64,000 nucleotides of DNA, taken from NCBI RefSeq assembly GCF_055900595.2, contig NZ_CM148325.1; one strand, 5' to 3'. A model generated the notes under the pieces. It had not been told where the DNA came from and did not search any database. It saw only the letters and a program-made list of their open reading frames with translations. Shown here in pieces: positions 25,732-54,763 of this stretch. Each line of letters begins with the position of its first letter. Positions within the stretch are counted from its first letter, which is position 1. The position numbers and the translations under genes are program-made.

Positions 25732-25807
25732 TGGTGGCCCCTGCTGGACTTGAACCAGCGACCAAGCGATTATGAGTCGCCTGCTCTAACCACTGAGCTA
25801 AGGGGCC
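25732..25807 (-). tRNA. ileX: tRNA-Ile2 (anticodon CAU, lysidine-modified), 76 nt with encoded CCA
   Basis: reverse complement reads GGCCCCTTAGCTCAGTGGTTAGAGCAGGCGACTCATAATCGC...GGTTCAAGTCC...GGGGCCACCA. Confidence 0.88.
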
Positions 25808-40443: not shown

Positions 40444-41649
40444 TTACGCCGCCTTACGGGCGCGTCCTTTACGGACTGACGGCAATATTTGTCCTGCCGC
40501 CATGACTTCAAAACCTGCTGTTAATATATTGCGAGCGCCGTTTACATCGGCGTTTGCCGTATAGCCGCACGCGGTACAGATAAAGCTCGCCTGCGTCCTG
40601 CGGTTATTTTTCGATGTATGCCCACAACATGCGCATTTCTGACTGGTGTACGCCGGATTAATCGCCAGCACATCACCGCCGCGCCATGCCTGCTTATATT
40701 CGAGCTGGCGGCGCATTTCTGCCCAGCCCTGATCCAGTATCGCCCGGTTAAGACCTGATTTTGCCGCGACGTTGCGCCCCGGCTGGTCTACCGTACCCGC
40801 TGCTGATTTTGACATGTTCGAAACCTTTAAATCCTCAATGACTATCATCGCGTGGTTTTTGCTGATCGTCGTCGTGGTTTTATGAAGGTAATCGCGGCGG
40901 ATGTTTGCGATATGAGAGTGGAAACGGGAAATCTTCGCTTTCTGCTTTTTCCAGTTGGCGGAGAATTTAACCATCCGGGCCAGACGGCGCTGTAAGCGAG
41001 CCAGCTTATCCTGATTTTTTTTAAAGCTGTTTACCGGTTCAAAGACCGTGCCGTCTGAAAGTGTTGCCAGCTTTGTTATACCTGCATCCAGGCCTATTGC
41101 GCTGGTCGATGCGTGAATCGGATCGGTAACAGCTAATTCGACCTGAAAAGACACATACCAGTGTCCGGCATGCTGGCTGATGGTGCAATTTTTAATGACG
41201 CCTTCAATCTTCCGGGACTGACGAAATTTAACCCAGCCCAGTCCTGACGAGAGTTTCACACGGCCATAATCCAGCCCACAATATTTGCTGAAATTGACGA
41301 ACCGGATAGAGTCGCAGCCTTTGGTTTTCTTTTTGAAAACGGGCTTTTCAGCCGTCAGGGATTTATCAAAACAGCGATCCCATGCGCTCCGCAGGTCTTT
41401 CAGTTTCTGCTGGAGGTTGTCAGTGTAACCCTCAGCAAGAAAGGCCAGCTCAGGGAGTTTTTTCCAGCCCGTAAGTCGTTTATTCAGGTCGAAAGCTGAC
41501 GGAATTTTTCCGCCCGCGTCATGAATGCTCAGTGTTTCATTCAGTGCATAGTTCCAGACAAAGCGAGCGCAACCGCACAACTGACGCAACCTTTGCGCCT
41601 GCTGGTCAGTGGGGTAGAGCCTGTATTTATATGCTTTCTGGATTAACAT
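40444..41649 (-). CDS. tnpB: TnpB (OrfB) RuvC-like nuclease, IS605 family
   Basis: 401 aa; N-terminus MLIQKAYKYRLYPT; RuvC D (IGLDAG), E (IVIEDL), D (NADVNGA) residues and CxxC...CxxC zinc finger all present. Confidence 0.9.
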   Translation of the reverse strand: MLIQKAYKYRLYPTDQQAQRLRQLCGCARFVWNYALNETLSIHDAGGKIPSAFDLNKRLTGWKKLPELAFLAEGYTDNLQQKLKDLRSAWDRCFDKSLTAEKPVFKKKTKGCDSIRFVNFSKYCGLDYGRVKLSSGLGWVKFRQSRKIEGVIKNCTISQHAGHWYVSFQVELAVTDPIHASTSAIGLDAGITKLATLSDGTVFEPVNSFKKNQDKLARLQRRLARMVKFSANWKKQKAKISRFHSHIANIRRDYLHKTTTTISKNHAMIVIEDLKVSNMSKSAAGTVDQPGRNVAAKSGLNRAILDQGWAEMRRQLEYKQAWRGGDVLAINPAYTSQKCACCGHTSKNNRRTQASFICTACGYTANADVNGARNILTAGFEVMAAGQILPSVRKGRARKAA

Positions 41650-41715
41650 TTTGCATTCAGTATGTGGTTATTTAGAATGTACAATATATCCACATTTTTT
41701 TGGGAGGATCAATAC

Positions 41716-42114
41716 GTGTGCGAAATCAATCGTTCACGCTATTCAGCTTACCTGTTGCATGTTCACGTTGTTTTTATGACAAAATACCGCCGTCCAGTTT
41801 TTGGTGAATTGCATCATGCAAACATGCGTCAGTATGTAGCGGAGGTATGCGCGGACTTTGGCGCCGAGTTAAAGGAATGTGACGGCGAGGCAGATCATGT
41901 TCACATGCTGATTGAATACCCACCGTTGGTGCAACTCACAAAGCTGGTAAACAGCCTTAAGTCCGTTACCAGTAGGCGGCTGCGGAATGATTTTATTGAT
42001 TTGCGCGCCGCGTATTCAAAGCCCGTACTCTGGTCACGCTCTTATTTCATCGGTTCATGTGGTGGAGCACCGCTGGAAGTTGTGAAAAAGTATATTCAGA
42101 ATCAGCGTGGCTGA
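41716..42114 (+). CDS. tnpA: TnpA Y1 (HuH) transposase, IS200/IS605 family
   Basis: HVHMLIEYPP HuH motif and catalytic Tyr in WSRSYFIGSCGG; start placed at GTG 41716 after GGGAGGA RBS (132 aa); first in-frame ATG is at 41662. Confidence 0.82.
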   Translation: MCEINRSRYSAYLLHVHVVFMTKYRRPVFGELHHANMRQYVAEVCADFGAELKECDGEADHVHMLIEYPPLVQLTKLVNSLKSVTSRRLRNDFIDLRAAYSKPVLWSRSYFIGSCGGAPLEVVKKYIQNQRG

Positions 42115-46396: not shown

Positions 46397-47830
46397 ATGA
46401 AAGTAACGCTGCCAGAGTTTGAACGTGCAGGAGTGATGGTGGTTGGTGATGTGATGCTGGATCGTTACTGGTACGGTCCCACCAGCCGTATCTCGCCGGA
46501 AGCGCCGGTGCCCGTGGTTAAAGTGAATACCATCGAAGAACGTCCGGGCGGCGCGGCTAACGTGGCGATGAATATCGCTTCTCTCGGTGCTAATGCACGC
46601 CTGGTCGGGTTGACGGGCATTGACGATGCGGCGCGCGCGCTGAGTAAATCTCTGGCCGACGTCAACGTCAAATGCGACTTCGTTTCTGTACCGACGCATC
46701 CGACCATCACCAAATTACGGGTACTTTCCCGCAACCAACAGCTGATCCGTCTGGATTTTGAAGAAGGTTTCGAAGGGGTTGATCCGCAGCCGCTGCACGA
46801 GCGGATTAATCAGGCGCTGAGTTCGATTGGCGCGCTGGTGCTCTCTGACTACGCGAAAGGTGCGCTGGCAAGCGTGCAGCAGATGATCCAACTGGCGCGT
46901 AAAGCGGGCGTTCCGGTGCTGATTGATCCAAAAGGCACCGATTTTGAGCGCTACCGCGGCGCTACGCTGTTAACGCCGAATCTCTCGGAATTTGAAGCTG
47001 TTGTCGGTAAATGTAAGACCGAAGAAGAGATTGTTGAGCGCGGCATGAAACTGATTGCCGATTACGAACTCTCGGCTCTGTTGGTGACCCGTTCCGAACA
47101 AGGGATGTCGCTGCTGCAACCGGGTAAAGAGCCGCTGCATATGCCAACCCAGGCGCAAGAAGTGTATGACGTCACCGGTGCGGGCGATACGGTGATTGGT
47201 GTGCTGGCAGCAACGCTGGCGGCGGGTAATTCGCTGGAAGAAGCCTGCTTCTTTGCCAACGCGGCGGCCGGTGTGGTGGTTGGCAAACTGGGAACATCCA
47301 CGGTTTCGCCGATCGAGCTGGAAAATGCAGTACGTGGACGTGCAGATACCGGCTTTGGTGTGATGACCGAAGAGGAACTGAAGCTTGCTGTAGCGGCGGC
47401 GCGTAAACGCGGTGAAAAAGTGGTGATGACCAATGGCGTCTTCGACATCCTGCACGCCGGGCACGTCTCCTATCTGGCAAATGCCCGCAAACTGGGTGAC
47501 CGCCTGATTGTCGCTGTGAACAGCGATGCCTCCACCAAACGGCTGAAAGGGGATTCCCGCCCCGTTAACCCTCTCGAACAGCGTATGATTGTGCTGGGGG
47601 CACTGGAAGCGGTCGACTGGGTGGTGTCGTTTGAAGAAGACACGCCGCAGCGCTTGATCGCCGGGATCTTGCCAGACCTGCTGGTGAAAGGCGGCGACTA
47701 TAAACCAGAAGAGATTGCCGGGAGTAAAGAAGTCTGGGCCAACGGTGGCGAAGTGTTGGTGCTCAACTTTGAAGACGGTTGCTCAACGACCAACATCATC
47801 AAGAAGATCCAACAGGATAAAAAAGGCTAA
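46397..47830 (+). CDS. hldE: bifunctional heptose 7-phosphate kinase / heptose 1-phosphate adenylyltransferase HldE
   Basis: 477 aa, N-terminal ribokinase-like and C-terminal cytidylyltransferase domains. Confidence 0.93.
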
Positions 47831-47909
47831 CCGGAAAGCGGTTCACAGATCTCGCTTCGAACCAGGCAGGCCTATTGACGCTGTTGTTTTTTCAACCTAA
47901 AGTAAAGGA

Positions 47910-48060
47910 ACAAGGGTAAGGGAGGATTTCTCCCCCCTCTGAATTGGTTGTTAATAAGCCTGGAAACTTACTAGTAACAACACAATCAGTATGATGACGA
48001 ACTTCATCATAACCCTTTCCTTCTATAAGGCCCCTTCTTCGGGAGGGGCTTTCCCGTTTC
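47910..48060 (+). ncRNA. sibE: Sib antisense sRNA, copy proximal to hldE (likely sibE)
   Basis: plus-strand TTGACG-N17-TAAAGT promoter at 47875-47903; plus-strand terminator CCCCUUC-UUCG-GGAGGGG at 48031-48048 then U-rich tract; fully antisense to the ibs ORF; ends inferred. Confidence 0.6.
47951..48010 (-). CDS. ibsE: Ibs-family hydrophobic toxin peptide (19 aa, MMKFVIILIVLLLVSFQAY)
   Basis: minus-strand ATGATG start preceded by GGAAAGGG RBS, TAA stop; sequence fits the Ibs pattern. Confidence 0.75.
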   Translation of the reverse strand: MMKFVIILIVLLLVSFQAY

Positions 48061-48202
48061 AGCCCCTTGCTGACTCCCCGATTGTTGATGAGCGCCAGAC
48101 CCCGCGCAATGCTTTCCCAGAGGCAGTTTTGCCTTCCCCGAGCAGTCACGCAAAACGCTGCAACAGCCTGATCATTTGCAGTTTTTTGTGGAACACAGAT
48201 AT

Positions 48203-48231
48203 AAAAAATCCCCGGTTTTTTGGGCCAGGGA
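48203..48231 (-). terminator. intrinsic terminator copy within repeat 1 (minus strand)
   Basis: minus-strand UCCCUGG-CCCAAAAAA-CCGGGGA followed by UUUUUUAU; the G-U pair makes the stem complete only on the minus strand. Confidence 0.55.
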
Positions 48232-48286
48232 TATGTGTTAATGAAACCTTCTTGACGCTGATTTTTTTTCAACCTAAAGTAAAGGA

Positions 48287-48436
48287 ACAAGGGTAAGGGA
48301 GGATTTCTCCCCCCTCTGAATGGCCGTTAATAAGCGTGGAAACTTATCAGTAACAGCACAATCAGTATGATGACGAACTTCATCATAACCCTTTCCTTAT
48401 GTAAGGCCCCTTCCTCGGGAGGGGCTTTCCCGTTTC
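48287..48436 (+). ncRNA. sibD: Sib antisense sRNA, copy proximal to yqiK (likely sibD)
   Basis: TTGACG-N17-TAAAGT at 48252-48280; terminator hairpin at 48405-48426; antisense to second ibs ORF. Confidence 0.6.
48327..48386 (-). CDS. ibsD: Ibs-family hydrophobic toxin peptide (19 aa, MMKFVIILIVLLLISFHAY)
   Basis: second copy of the 19-codon ORF with the same RBS context. Confidence 0.75.
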   Translation of the reverse strand: MMKFVIILIVLLLISFHAY

Positions 48437-48576
48437 AGCCCCTTGCTGACTCCCCGATTGTTGATGAGCGCCAGACCCCGCGCAATGCTTTCTCTTATGC
48501 AGTTTTCTCTTCCCCGAGTTGGCTCGCAAAACGCTGTAACAACCTGATCATTTGTACTTTTTAGCGGAACGCAGAT

Positions 48577-48607
48577 ATAAAAAATCCCCGGCTTTTTGGG
48601 CCAGGGA
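48577..48607 (-). terminator. intrinsic terminator downstream of yqiK
   Basis: minus-strand UCCCUGG-CCCAAAAAG-CCGGGGA followed by U6, about 20 bp after the yqiK stop. Confidence 0.6.
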
Positions 48608-48624
48608 TGTTCATAGTTGAAAAT

Positions 48625-50301
48625 TTATTCTATGTTTTCTGCGACGGGAGTTGTTGAGGTTAAGGGTGAAGTCAATGCCGCCAGTGAGCCGCCTGAAACG
48701 CCAATTTCATTGAGCAAGGAGTCAATCAGCGGTGCCTGTGTGCGGTAAGAAAGGGCGGCAGACAATGCCTGTTCTGCCAGGTTTCCGCCACTAACGCTGC
48801 CTGATGCCGCATCCCCCGCAGCACCACCTCGGTTTAATCCATCGACCTGAATAATCTTGATGCCGTCAATGGACTTCATCGGCTCAACGGATTTCTCTAT
48901 TACTGCAGGTAACGACTGTAATAGCGCCAGTTTGAATTTAAGGCTGGTTTGCTCGTCAGAAAGTACGTTGATAGCGTCGTTCAGCGCACGTTGCGCTTCT
49001 GCTTCCGCCAGGCCTTTTTTGCGTGTTGCTTCGGCTAACTCAACGATCGCCGCCGCCTGCATCTCTGCGGCTTCTTTCTCTGCGGCTTCTTTCTCTGCTT
49101 TCGCCCGCACGGTCAGTTCAACCGCTTTGGTTTCTGCATCCTGCGCGGCAGCGATTAGGGCAACTTGTTTAGCACGATCGGCTTCTGCGGTCTGGCGAGT
49201 GGTTTCTACGTTTTGCTGGGCGCTTACCGCTTCTGCAAGTGCAAGGTTGGCACGCGCTTCCGCTTGTGACTGCTGTTCCGATTTGGCGGCAATAGCGATC
49301 GATTTCGTCTGGTTGGCGATTTCGGTGACCTGCTGCTGTTCGATCTCTTTAATGCGAACTTCACGTTCAGCTTCAACTTTTCTGGAACGGACGACCTGTT
49401 CGCGGTCGATTTCCGTTTCCTGAATCTGTCGTTCAGCCAGAATTCGCGTCTGCTCTGCTTCCCGACGACGCTCGGCCTCAAAAGCCGCAATTTTCGCATT
49501 CTGCTCAGCGGTACGGGTTTTAACCTGCTGCTCCTGCTCAAGCGTCATAAACGCTTCTTGCTGTTCAATCTCCAGCTTCCGCGAAAGCGCATCACGGTTT
49601 TTCTCACGCACCGCAACTTCTACATCCTGTTCAACTTCGTTACGTTCGCGACGACGGCGCTCCGTCTCCTGCGTCAGCTTGGTTAAACCTTCGGCGTCAA
49701 AGGCGTTGTTAGGATTGAAATGTTCCTTCGACGTCTGGTTAAAGTTGGTAAGTGAAACGCTTTCCAGTTCCAGGCCGTTTTTCGACAGATCTTCAGCAAC
49801 GGTATTTTGTACGCCCTGCACGAAGTTCTCGCGGGTATCCTGTAACTCATGCATGGTCATTTGTGCAGCTGTTGCACGGAGGGCATCGACAAATTTATCT
49901 TCAACCAACATACGTAAGTCTTCAGGCGACAGGGTGCGTTGCCCCAGCGTCTGGGCGGCGGTGGCAATACCTTCCACTGACGGTTTTACCCGCACAAAGA
50001 AAGCGACAACGACATCGACGCGCATACGATCTTTCGTAATCAGGCTATCAATGGTTGAGCGGCTGACTTCCAGCTTCAGAGTATTCATATTGATGGGGAT
50101 TATTTCATGAAAGATCGGCATCACGATTGCGCCACCGCTCATTACCACTTTTTGCCCACCTAAACCAGTACGAACAAAAGCTTGCTCTGCCGAAGCGCGA
50201 CGATAGAGCCTGGCGAAAATAATTCCAATAATAAACAGAATGCATACGGCAATAATTGCGGTAAACATCCAGGAGGGCACAGAATTAACAATATCATCCA
50301 T
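48625..50301 (-). CDS. yqiK: SPFH/band-7 (flotillin-like) inner membrane protein YqiK
   Basis: 558 aa, N-terminal TM, SPFH domain, long E/A/R/Q-rich coiled coil. Confidence 0.9.
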   Translation of the reverse strand: MDDIVNSVPSWMFTAIIAVCILFIIGIIFARLYRRASAEQAFVRTGLGGQKVVMSGGAIVMPIFHEIIPINMNTLKLEVSRSTIDSLITKDRMRVDVVVAFFVRVKPSVEGIATAAQTLGQRTLSPEDLRMLVEDKFVDALRATAAQMTMHELQDTRENFVQGVQNTVAEDLSKNGLELESVSLTNFNQTSKEHFNPNNAFDAEGLTKLTQETERRRRERNEVEQDVEVAVREKNRDALSRKLEIEQQEAFMTLEQEQQVKTRTAEQNAKIAAFEAERRREAEQTRILAERQIQETEIDREQVVRSRKVEAEREVRIKEIEQQQVTEIANQTKSIAIAAKSEQQSQAEARANLALAEAVSAQQNVETTRQTAEADRAKQVALIAAAQDAETKAVELTVRAKAEKEAAEKEAAEMQAAAIVELAEATRKKGLAEAEAQRALNDAINVLSDEQTSLKFKLALLQSLPAVIEKSVEPMKSIDGIKIIQVDGLNRGGAAGDAASGSVSGGNLAEQALSAALSYRTQAPLIDSLLNEIGVSGGSLAALTSPLTSTTPVAENIE

Positions 50302-51882: not shown

Positions 51883-52134
51883 GCTTATTCTCAGGGCGGG
51901 GCGAAATTCCCCACCGGCGGTAAATCAACTCAGTTGAAAGCCCGCGAGCGCTTTGGGTGCGAACTCAAAGGACAGCAGATCCGGTGTAATTCCGGGGCCG
52001 ACGGTTAGAGTCCGGATGGGAGAGAGTAACGATTCTGTCGGGCATGGACCCGCTCACGTTATTTTGGCTATATGCCGCCACTCCTAAGACTGCCCTGATT
52101 CTGGTAACCATAATTTTAGTGAGGTTTTTTTACC
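51883..52134 (+). promoter_or_regulatory. sroG: FMN riboswitch (RFN element) and expression platform in the ribB leader
   Basis: CAGGGCGGGGCGAAATTCCCCACCGGCGGTAAA...CCGACGGTTAGAGTCCGGATGGGAGAGAGTAACG matches conserved RFN aptamer blocks directly upstream of ribB. Confidence 0.85.
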
Positions 52135-52788: not shown

Positions 52789-52826
52789 AAACCGCTGCTT
52801 AATTTACCGCGTTAATCAATAAATAT

Positions 52827-52850
52827 CCTCCGGCATAGCCGGAGGTTTTT
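52827..52850 (+). terminator. ribB intrinsic terminator
   Basis: CCTCCGGC-ATA-GCCGGAGG followed by TTTTT. Confidence 0.7.
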
Positions 52851-52868
52851 CAAATGCGCCTGTAAGGC

Positions 52869-53575
52869 TCTGTTACCAGCCGCGCCCTAACAGGCGCATA
52901 CGATCTGACATTTGCATTCAACTTCGTTACTTACGGCCCGTAAACGGGCTGCCCGGATATGGAATCGATAACTGCTCCCCCATTTTATCCTCTTCAAGCT
53001 GGTGCTTTATGTAGTCCTGTATCTTCGCCGTGTTCTTACCCACCGTATCGACATAGTACCCTCGGCACCAGAACTCCCTGTTTCTGTATTTGAATTTCAA
53101 ATCCCCAAACTGCTCGTAAAGCATCAGACTGCTTTTCCCTTTCAGATATCCCATAAAGCCGGATACGCTCATTTTGGGTGGGATTTCCACAAGCATATGG
53201 ATATGATCTGCGCAGCACTCTGCTTCCAGAATCCGTACGCTTTTCCACTCACACAGCTTTCTCAAAATACTGCCTATCGCCCTACGCTTCTCTCCGTAAA
53301 ACGCCAGTCTTCGGTATTTCGGCGCAAAAACTATGTGATATTTACAGTTCCAGCGGGTGTGCGCTAAGCTCTTTTCGTCCCCCATTGGGACCCCCTTTTG
53401 ATTTCTTGTTTGACACTTGCAGTTGCCAGACCGCAAGGTGTTTTAACAAATCAAAAGGGGTTTTAATAACTGGCTCAAAGCTGAAAGCTTTCCGGAACCC
53501 CCAGCCTAGCTGGGGGTTTTCTGTGCACAAGAAACCGAAGCTATTACTGGCTTCGGTTTTTATTTTGCTCTTGTT
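52869..53575. mobile_element. IS200 copy (about 0.7 kb)
   Basis: 152 aa IS200-type TnpA plus characteristic structured left end: terminator hairpin AAACCGAAGC...GCTTCGGTTT (53532-53559), hairpin AACCCCCAGC...GCTGGGGGTT, and a long stem pairing with the RBS; boundaries estimated from the expected ~707 bp size. Confidence 0.75.
52927..53385 (-). CDS. tnpA: IS200 transposase TnpA (Y1 HuH)
   Basis: start at ATG for MGDEKSLAHTRWNCKYHIVFAPKYRR; HIHMLVEIPP HuH motif; 152 aa. Confidence 0.9.
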   Translation of the reverse strand: MGDEKSLAHTRWNCKYHIVFAPKYRRLAFYGEKRRAIGSILRKLCEWKSVRILEAECCADHIHMLVEIPPKMSVSGFMGYLKGKSSLMLYEQFGDLKFKYRNREFWCRGYYVDTVGKNTAKIQDYIKHQLEEDKMGEQLSIPYPGSPFTGRK

Positions 53576-53761
53576 ATGCAAGATGTTAATTCCTCTTCTC
53601 TTTCTATGAGAAAATTTCATTAATATCAGGCATTCTTTTCCATTATGATCAAAATCATATAATTGTTCCGTTATTATGCGACCATATGAATATATCCGAA
53701 AAAGGATATGTGAATTTTATGCGCTAAATGTTTAGTATTGTTAAATATTAAGGGTAAAAGG

Positions 53762-53932
53762 ATGTTTATCGCCTGGTACTGGATTGTATTGATTGCTCTG
53801 GTTGTGGTGGGTTATTTACTGCATTTGAAACGTTATTGTCGGGCGTTTCGTCAGGACAGAGACGCACTGCTTGAAGCGCGGAATAAATACTTAAACAGTA
53901 CGAGAGAAGAGACAGCCGAGAAGGTAGAATAG
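53762..53932 (+). CDS. small (56 aa) single-TM protein, unassigned
   Basis: ATG at 53762 after AAGGG RBS; MFIAWYWIVLIALVVVGYLLHL TM helix then charged tail; terminator hairpin downstream. Confidence 0.5.
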   Translation: MFIAWYWIVLIALVVVGYLLHLKRYCRAFRQDRDALLEARNKYLNSTREETAEKVE

Positions 53933-53949
53933 GGCTTTAGTGAAGCTGG

Positions 53950-53980
53950 CAGAAGTTGTCCATGCGCTGGACAACTTCTG
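53950..53980. terminator. bidirectional hairpin terminator (small ORF / zupT)
   Basis: CAGAAGTTGTCC-ATGCGCTG-GGACAACTTCTG perfect 12 bp stem. Confidence 0.6.
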
Positions 53981-53989
53981 ATGTTGCTT

Positions 53990-54763
53990 TTAACCAATTC
54001 CCGCCGTTTGTAGTAGCACTAAACTGAATCCCATCACTGACATTCCACATAGCACGCCATAGCTGGGGTTATTATTGGGGTCAATCTCTTTAGCTAGCGG
54101 CATTAATTCATCAACCGAGAGCGCCACCATAATTCCTGCAACCGCCGCCATGATTGCCGCCATGACCACCGGAGAAATCATGCTACCGAGGATTAACCAC
54201 GCCAGAACACCACCAAGAATTTCTGCCAGCCCAGAAATGCCCGCCCACAAAATTGCGGTGCGTTTTGACCCCGTTGCCGCGTAAACCGGCCCCGCAACTG
54301 CCAGACCTTCAGGAATATTATGCAATGCAACAGCCAGCGCGATGCCAAAGCCCAGCTCCAGGTTACTGCTCGCCGTGACAAAGGTGGCAATGCCTTCCGG
54401 GAAGTTATGCAGACTGATGCCGAGAGTGAGCAGAATGGCTGTGCGCTTGATCGATTTTGGCAACGGCTGCACCGATTTTTGCATTAAATCCTGCGGATGC
54501 GCATGTGGCAACATGCGGTCCAGACCAAAATAGCCAAGCAGACCGAAGATAAACATTCCATAACCCAGCACAGGCGACATTCCTTCGGCGGCTAATGCGG
54601 CAGGAAGCATTTCCATTAATGAGATGAGCAACATAATCCCCGCCGCAAATCCTAGCGAAAACGCCAGTAAGCGGTTCGAGGGTTTTTGTCCGAGAACGCC
54701 GAGAAACGCGCCAATAAACGTGGCTGCCCCCGCCAGTATGGTCAGAATGAGAGGTACTGACAT
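53990..54763 (-). CDS. zupT: ZIP-family zinc transporter ZupT
   Basis: start at ATG for [20 protein letters not shown] (257 aa) after GGAG RBS. Confidence 0.92.

Follow-up and report, generated by a model that had tools for sequence, protein, structure and literature searches.

The window, a stretch of 64,000 nucleotides of E. coli DNA, carries between hldE and yqiK two tandem type I toxin-antitoxin modules that by sequence are almost certainly (probability about 0.96) the orthologues of E. coli K-12 sibE/ibsE and sibD/ibsD. We establish here the anatomy, family membership, orthology and strand signals of these modules. The locus is already known, the window matching the sibD/sibE-ibsD/ibsE pair at its usual site between hldE and yqiK; in K-12 the pair was characterised from 2008-2010 onwards. 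The original prediction stands both as an observation and in its interpretation, with the minor corrections given below. The features described below are those of the Sib/Ibs family (SibA-E, RF00113, formerly QUAD repeats), in which, as here, an antisense RNA of ~140 nt extends over the toxin ORF in full, ribosome-binding site included, the peptide is hydrophobic with 18-19 residues, and the variable regions are TRD1 and TRD2, the two target-recognition domains (PMC2943612).

Tandem units between hldE and yqiK

The interval 47875-48620 is bounded by the stop codons of a 477-aa ORF (plus strand, 46397-47830) and a 558-aa ORF (minus strand, 48625-50301), which are hldE and yqiK by the annotation of an E. 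coli genome that is 100% identical. In K-12 MG1655 the yqiK-hldE interval holds sibD/ibsD and sibE/ibsE. The original prediction had pointed to these K-12 genes as the sequences to align with the window, and the alignment is collinear, with a mean column identity of 96%. On the collinear order hldE-sibE/ibsE-sibD/ibsD-yqiK, we assign the unit near hldE by sequence as the sibE/ibsE orthologue and the unit near yqiK as the sibD/ibsD orthologue. Flanking genes, order and orientation are as for K-12 sibE/ibsE (b4611/b4666) and sibD/ibsD (b4447/b4664), and the tandem spacing of about 375-377 bp and the positions of promoters, terminators and ORFs also agree. Identity to the K-12 orthologue is 92.8% for the E unit of the window and 90.9% for the D unit. 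Differences include the -10 element of sibE (TAAAGT in the window, TAGAGT in K-12), the loop of the SibD terminator (CUCG in the window, UUCG in K-12) and substitutions in the TRD1 and TRD2 regions of the window copies.

The two direct repeats of ~377 bp that had been predicted were recovered as a 70-nt repeat (47875-47944 and 48252-48321, 97% identical, start-to-start spacing 377 bp) followed by a 300-nt repeat (47945-48244 and 48321-48620, 89% identical, spacing 376 bp); over the whole unit the copies are 88.6% identical (334/377). The predicted interval, 47887-48615, thus captured the repeats but began too late, as position 47887 falls inside the spacer of the first promoter; the units occupy 47875-48251 and 48252 to ~48620. 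Their features are collected in Table 1.

Table 1. Features of the two sib/ibs units, in window coordinates
Feature	Position	Strand	Basis and details
sibE promoter	47875-47903	+	consensus scan; TTGACG 47875-47880, 17-nt spacer, TAAAGT 47898-47903
SIB_RNA match 1	47875-48025	+	142.9 bits, E 1.4e-29
SibE antitoxin RNA, 145 nt	47910-48054	+	Rfam; ends by alignment to K-12 annotation
ibsE-position toxin ORF, MMKFVIILIVLLLVSFQAY + stop	47951-48010	-	translation; WP_072148302.1
SibE TRD1 equivalent, over C-terminal ibsE codons	47957-47979	+	alignment to SibC +46-68
SibE TRD2 equivalent	48010-48029	+	alignment to SibC +99-115
SibE terminator hairpin, loop UUCG	48027-48052	+	folding
Putative ibsE promoter	48072-48109	-	-35 TTGCGC 48109-48104, 17-nt spacer, -10 AACAAT 48086-48081, start near 48072
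Terminator hairpin and T-run, duplicate of yqiK terminator	48208-48232	-	folds; repeat partner of 48584-48608
sibD promoter	48252-48280	+	consensus scan; TTGACG 48252-48257, 17-nt spacer, TAAAGT 48275-48280
SIB_RNA match 2	48252-48401	+	147.4 bits, E 1.1e-30
SibD antitoxin RNA, 144 nt	48287-48430	+	Rfam; ends by alignment to K-12 annotation
ibsD-position toxin ORF, MMKFVIILIVLLLISFHAY + stop	48327-48386	-	translation; WP_100733770.1
SibD TRD1 equivalent	48333-48355	+	alignment to SibC
SibD TRD2 equivalent	48386-48405	+	alignment to SibC
SibD terminator hairpin, loop CUCG	48403-48428	+	folding
Putative ibsD promoter	48448-48485	-	-35 TTGCGC 48485-48480, 17-nt spacer, -10 AACAAT 48462-48457, start near 48448
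yqiK intrinsic terminator, distal end of second repeat unit	48584-48608	-	scan; 9 pairs, then TTTTTATATC

Sib antitoxin RNAs and their transcription signals

An Rfam scan of the whole window returned two full-length SIB_RNA (RF00113) matches, both on the plus strand and both spanning model positions 1-147 without truncation; the gathering score of this model is 56, and the E-values obtained (Table 1) place the sib observation far beyond chance. Both units carry the sequence signals of a Sib gene, namely a plus-strand promoter of their own, an intrinsic terminator and an RNA of ~140 nt, and they occupy positions orthologous to the named K-12 genes sibE and sibD. The RNA had been predicted as fully antisense and ~150 nt long. 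Its plus-strand, antisense placement is borne out by the Rfam matches, the promoter and the terminator, while the length comes to 145 nt for SibE and 144 nt for SibD. The SibE 5′ end at 47910 was transferred from that of K-12 sibE through the alignment, and the -10 element of the sib promoter ends 6 nt upstream of the transferred end.

The Rfam model itself opens at the promoter -35 box (UUGACA) and closes before the terminator. Set against the K-12 annotation, the SIB_RNA matches begin ~35 nt ahead of the true RNA start and leave out the last ~29 nt of the RNA. Since the model includes the promoter and excludes the terminator, the match coordinates should not be read as RNA ends.

The consensus scan found the plus-strand promoter, anticipated as TTGACG-N17-TAAAGT, in both units, each with 9 of 12 consensus matches; it gave 3 promoter-like sites, against 0.8 expected in shuffles. 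Compared with shuffles, both RNAs are also strongly folded, with minimum free energies of -53.5 kcal/mol for SibE (z -4.95) and -53.7 kcal/mol for SibD (z -4.82). Folding of the complementary strands is just as strong, in line with a structured sense/antisense pair.

Each RNA is closed by a hairpin that favours the plus strand. The SibE terminator, AAGGCCCCUUC-UUCG-GGAGGGGCUUU, folds with -18.1 kcal/mol on the plus strand and -11.1 on the minus strand (37-nt stretch), and the corresponding values for SibD are -19.3 and -12.9, a preference of about 6-7 kcal/mol. Two G.U pairs in the plus-strand stem become C.A mismatches on the other strand. The UUCG tetraloop named in the original prediction is present in the first copy but not in the second, whose loop is CUCG.

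A second hairpin, AUCCCUGGCC...GGGGAU followed by UUUUUUAUA, lies on the minus strand at 48232-48208 and 48608-48584. Strand specificity had been predicted for both kinds of hairpin. This holds for the Sib terminator, whereas the energy asymmetry of the second hairpin, which has one U.G pair on the minus strand, is small: taken alone, it folds with -11.1 on the minus strand versus -10.0 on the plus strand at 48232-48208, and with -14.8 versus -12.5 at 48608-48584. We assign it to the minus strand mainly because of the T-run that follows it there (TTTTTTATA). The yqiK terminator at 48584-48608 folds with -15.4 on the minus strand and -13.6 on the plus strand, and the 48608-48584 copy is the only one that the terminator scan reports. 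The duplicate at 48208-48232 would be well placed to stop read-through from ibsD.

Ibs toxin ORFs and the putative ibs transcripts

Translation confirmed the predicted 19-residue peptides on the minus strand, one 19-codon ORF lying in each SIB_RNA match, and RefSeq names the identical ORFs Ibs family toxins (accessions in Table 1). We assessed Ibs membership by alignment and by RefSeq naming, as profile libraries need at least 20 aa. The original prediction depended on a match to the Ibs family, and both peptides do align to K-12 IbsA-E, gapless apart from the 18-residue IbsB and with the common pattern MM(K/R)x(V/L)II...SFxxY. The E-position peptide is identical to IbsD at 17/19 residues (differing at 4 and 17) and to IbsE at 14/19 (differing at 4, 9, 14, 17 and 18), and the D-position peptide is identical to IbsD at 16/19 (differing at 4, 14 and 17). 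K-12 IbsE reads MMKLVIILVVLLLLSFPTY and IbsD MMKLVIILIVLLLVSFAAY, compared with MMKFVIILIVLLLVSFQAY and MMKFVIILIVLLLISFHAY at the corresponding positions of the window. Between themselves, the two window peptides differ as predicted at two positions, 14 (V/I) and 17 (Q/H).

The window alleles, with F4 in both peptides and Q17 or H17, are absent from the five K-12 Ibs sequences. Position 4 is H or L in the K-12 peptides, of which IbsA, IbsC and IbsE are named 'toxic peptide' by RefSeq. Because this position already varies in K-12, F is probably tolerated there; the toxicity of the window alleles is assumed from K-12. Overexpressed K-12 Ibs peptides are toxic and harm the cell envelope or membrane (as summarised in PMC2943612), and a preprint describes inhibition of the Fo sector of the F-type ATP synthase by Salmonella IbsA (10.1101/2025.05.26.656083).

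Closely upstream of the ibsE ORF, at about 48015-48022, lies the Shine-Dalgarno sequence GGAAAGGG, which like the ATGATG start is identical in both copies. Each ORF with its Shine-Dalgarno sequence is contained wholly within, and antisense to, the corresponding Sib RNA. Han et al. mapped the starts of ibsC and ibsD in K-12 and found mRNAs of ~160 nt whose 5′ ends lie 18 nt past the Sib 3′ end (PMC2943612). Applying this 18-nt overhang to the window places the ibs starts near 48072 and 48448. Directly upstream of both, copies E and D carry the identical sequence TTGCGC-N17-AACAAT, a putative ibs promoter with 8 of 12 consensus matches that is under the threshold of the scan and is not reported by it. 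The 3′ end of the ibs mRNA is undefined even in K-12 (PMC2943612).

When the Sib complements (47910-48054 and 48287-48430, minus strand) are folded, the AUGAUGA start pairs with a downstream UCAUCAU, and AGGGUU, which closes the Shine-Dalgarno region GGAAAGGGUU on its 3′ side, is base-paired with an ACCCUU close to the 3′ end. The coordinates for such self-pairing of the ibs mRNAs are 47912-48072 and 48289-48448 on the minus strand. As modelled, the ibs mRNA may also conceal its own ribosome-binding site, like other type I toxin mRNAs.

Age and extent of the duplication

The original prediction regarded the copies as diverging. They do differ, at 11 positions in Sib, and they are better described as long-separated paralogues. 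To date the duplication, we compared informative sites in a four-way alignment of the E and D units of the window with those of K-12. The orthologous pattern, with E grouping with E and D with D, occurs at 14 sites, the concerted pattern, with both copies of one genome alike, at 2, and the crossed pattern at 1. The 14 orthologous against 2 concerted sites argue from sequence that the duplication is older than the split of the window lineage from K-12 and that the copies are old paralogues. We rejected a recent duplication, or homogenisation by gene conversion, on the same counts; conversion has been minor at most. The two concerted sites are the codon for F4 or L4 and one site in TRD1.

The homology that the five K-12 sib loci all share starts at the Sib -35 box and ends ~25 nt beyond the Sib terminator. 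The other ~190 bp of a unit, with the minus-strand terminator among them, are confined to the D/E pair, and SibA and SibB share an extension of their own that is distinct from it. By sequence, the D/E layout fits a tandem duplication of a segment spanning the sib promoter to the yqiK terminator. A function for the ~190-bp extension was considered and set aside: among the four units, ~16% of its columns are variable compared with ~14% in the Sib part, and it shows no sign of separate constraint.

A more speculative thought, to which we give a small chance, is that the window alleles form new Sib/ibs specificity classes, with F4 in the two peptides, Q17 in one and H17 in the other, and TRD1 and TRD2 unlike those of K-12; the two sites that changed together, the codon for F4 and a position in TRD1, could be traces of gene conversion from one tandem copy to the other. 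The locus would in that case offer a natural series for how evolving cis-antisense pairs stay insulated.

Recognition domains and probable insulation of the two modules

K-12 Sib RNAs are constitutively expressed and repress the cognate ibs mRNA in vivo; pairing begins at TRD1 (SibC +46-68, ibs C-terminal codons) or TRD2 (+99-115, translation initiation region) and spreads outward into a duplex that is a substrate of RNase III, and both domains, which determine cognate specificity, sit where the Sib family varies most (PMC2943612). By analogy, we infer that the window alleles behave as the K-12 ones in repression, cognate specificity, toxicity and membrane damage. A Sib RNA of ~145 nt would be made on the plus strand from a sigma-70-type promoter and stop at its own hairpin terminator, and a minus-strand promoter ~18 nt past the Sib 3′ end would give an ibs mRNA of ~160 nt, translated into the 19-residue hydrophobic membrane peptide. 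The two transcripts would be complementary across nearly their full length. Sib would pair with its own ibs mRNA from TRD1 (C-terminal codons) and TRD2 (ribosome-binding region), and the pairing would both block translation and open the duplex to RNase III, so that no toxin would be made during Sib expression.

In hok/Sok, ldr/Rdl and symE/SymR, as in Sib/ibs, a small antisense RNA represses translation of the toxin; the hok and ldr toxins are small membrane peptides, and some such systems are multi-copy paralogues with cognate specificity (PMC2943612). Sib stands apart in that the antisense RNA extends along all of the functional mRNA and not just a 5′ or 3′ segment of it (PMC2943612). No sequence relationship between these systems and Sib/ibs was found or expected.

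The 11 positions (of ~145) at which SibE and SibD differ fall for the most part where Sib RNAs are variable and are distributed as follows: 3 in TRD1, 2 in TRD2, 4 directly 5′ of TRD1, 1 directly 3′ of TRD1 and 1 in the terminator loop. Between the two domains the copies share an identical core of 42 nt; the K-12 D/E pair has the same layout with a core of 36 nt. Peptide differences 14 and 17 fall within codons that overlap TRD1. Counted by alignment column, differences occupy 5 of ~43 columns inside TRD1 and TRD2 (three gap columns in TRD2 included) and 6 of ~104 outside, an enrichment that is suggestive and, with so few sites, not significant.

By analogy with K-12, the SibE and SibD modules are probably insulated from each other. 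The main alternative is residual cross-repression, in which the Sib RNAs are not strictly cognate-specific and each represses both ibs mRNAs, the pair then acting as one redundant module. The 42 nt of uninterrupted identity, which take in the Shine-Dalgarno sequence of ibs, its start codon and the codons of the N-terminus, would suit such promiscuity, as would the differing Sib positions being just 11 of about 145, and K-12 ibsA is indeed repressed by non-cognate Sib RNAs (PMC2943612). By contrast, K-12 SibD fails to bind ibsC mRNA unless there is denaturation, and changing both TRD1 and TRD2 in K-12 abolishes repression even though ~100 nt of complementarity are left (PMC2943612). Given that the window copies differ in both domains, with the layout of the K-12 D/E pair, we consider a single redundant module unlikely.

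Two unlikely readings: decay of the modules, and long ORFs across the repeats as genes

Two insulated, functional modules would also be a wrong description if one or both copies were decaying remnants, neither expressed nor toxic any longer. In the laboratory, cells can do without chromosomal type I modules, and the window peptides are unlike every K-12 one at position 4 (F) and position 17. However, both ORFs are intact with the Shine-Dalgarno sequence and ATGATG start unchanged, both promoters and both terminators are intact, and the SIB_RNA scores cover the full model, 1-147, without truncation. Position 4 is in any case variable (H/L) among the K-12 peptides, the 'toxic peptide' entries IbsA, IbsC and IbsE being among them, and the tandem pair is retained in 5404/5426 genomes. 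Taken together, these observations make decay highly improbable.

Long ORFs do exist across the repeats (101 aa and 65 aa, plus strand; 132 aa, minus strand), and one RefSeq record has a 'hypothetical protein' beneath the match. That any of these ORFs specifies a conventional protein is scarcely credible, and we rejected them as genes: no Pfam match comes near the curated cut-off (best E 0.032, 13.9 bits against a cut-off of 27), the plus-strand ORFs are unequal (101 versus 65 aa) despite the repeated DNA, and 1-nt indels in K-12 at alignment columns 243 and 577 break their frames; neither frame nor length is conserved between the copies or with K-12.

Distribution of the locus

We used megablast with window positions 47840-48640 as the query against 5426 complete E. 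coli genomes, counting a genome when at least 80% of the query was covered. The locus is present in 5404 of the 5426. Eight genomes are 100% identical at the locus, the majority of the others are 90-95% identical, and at least 99% identity is reached in those 8 genomes only. Beneath the genome matches lie two CDSs annotated as "type I toxin-antitoxin system Ibs family toxin" and yqiK. The adjacent hldE (46397-47830) behaves in the same way: of 5425 complete E. coli genomes, just 11 reach at least 99% identity and 5414 lie at 95-99%. Because hldE shows the same pattern, the rarity is a property of the lineage and not of the locus: by sequence, the window belongs to an E. coli lineage that has seldom been sampled, and the locus shows no unusual divergence of its own. 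Unusually fast evolution of the locus was rejected on this comparison, hldE being equally rare at 99% or more (11 genomes versus 8).

With the pair nearly universal in complete E. coli genomes, the significance of the window locus is slight apart from its correct annotation. NZ_CP098223.1 is 100% identical over 1501-2301 to window positions 47840-48640, and RefSeq lists both Ibs toxin CDSs there, without an ncRNA feature for either Sib antitoxin; in the K-12 record, unlike in NZ_CP098223.1, both Sib ncRNAs are annotated. Automated annotation of the identical locus thus misses the Sib antitoxin RNAs, and the RNA ends given in Table 1 are the useful ones.

Other elements in the window

An IS200-type element lies at ~52803-53535, between ribB and yqiD. 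Within the query 52790-53995, positions 14-747 are 95-99.5% identical to IS200/IS605 tnpA copies found at other places in E. coli, and an Rfam STnc490 match (53395-53518, minus strand, 146.4 bits) falls inside the element. Among the 5426 complete E. coli genomes, not one reaches 80% coverage of 52790-53995, the insertion site being absent from this collection; by coordinate mapping, NZ_CP098223.1, with its 100% identical sib locus, is without the IS200-type insertion there. At 40444-42114, between ygiF and ygiM, a 401-aa ORF (minus strand) and a 150-aa ORF (plus strand) correspond by coordinate mapping to a TnpB-family RNA-guided endonuclease and an ISEc41 IS200/IS605 tnpA of NZ_CP098223.1. 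An ordinary FMN riboswitch (51883-52031, plus strand, 120.9 bits) precedes ribB. A tRNA with anticodon CAT (25732-25807, minus strand), likewise ordinary, is called tRNA-Met by ARAGORN; from the K-12 gene order, we take it to be probably ileX.
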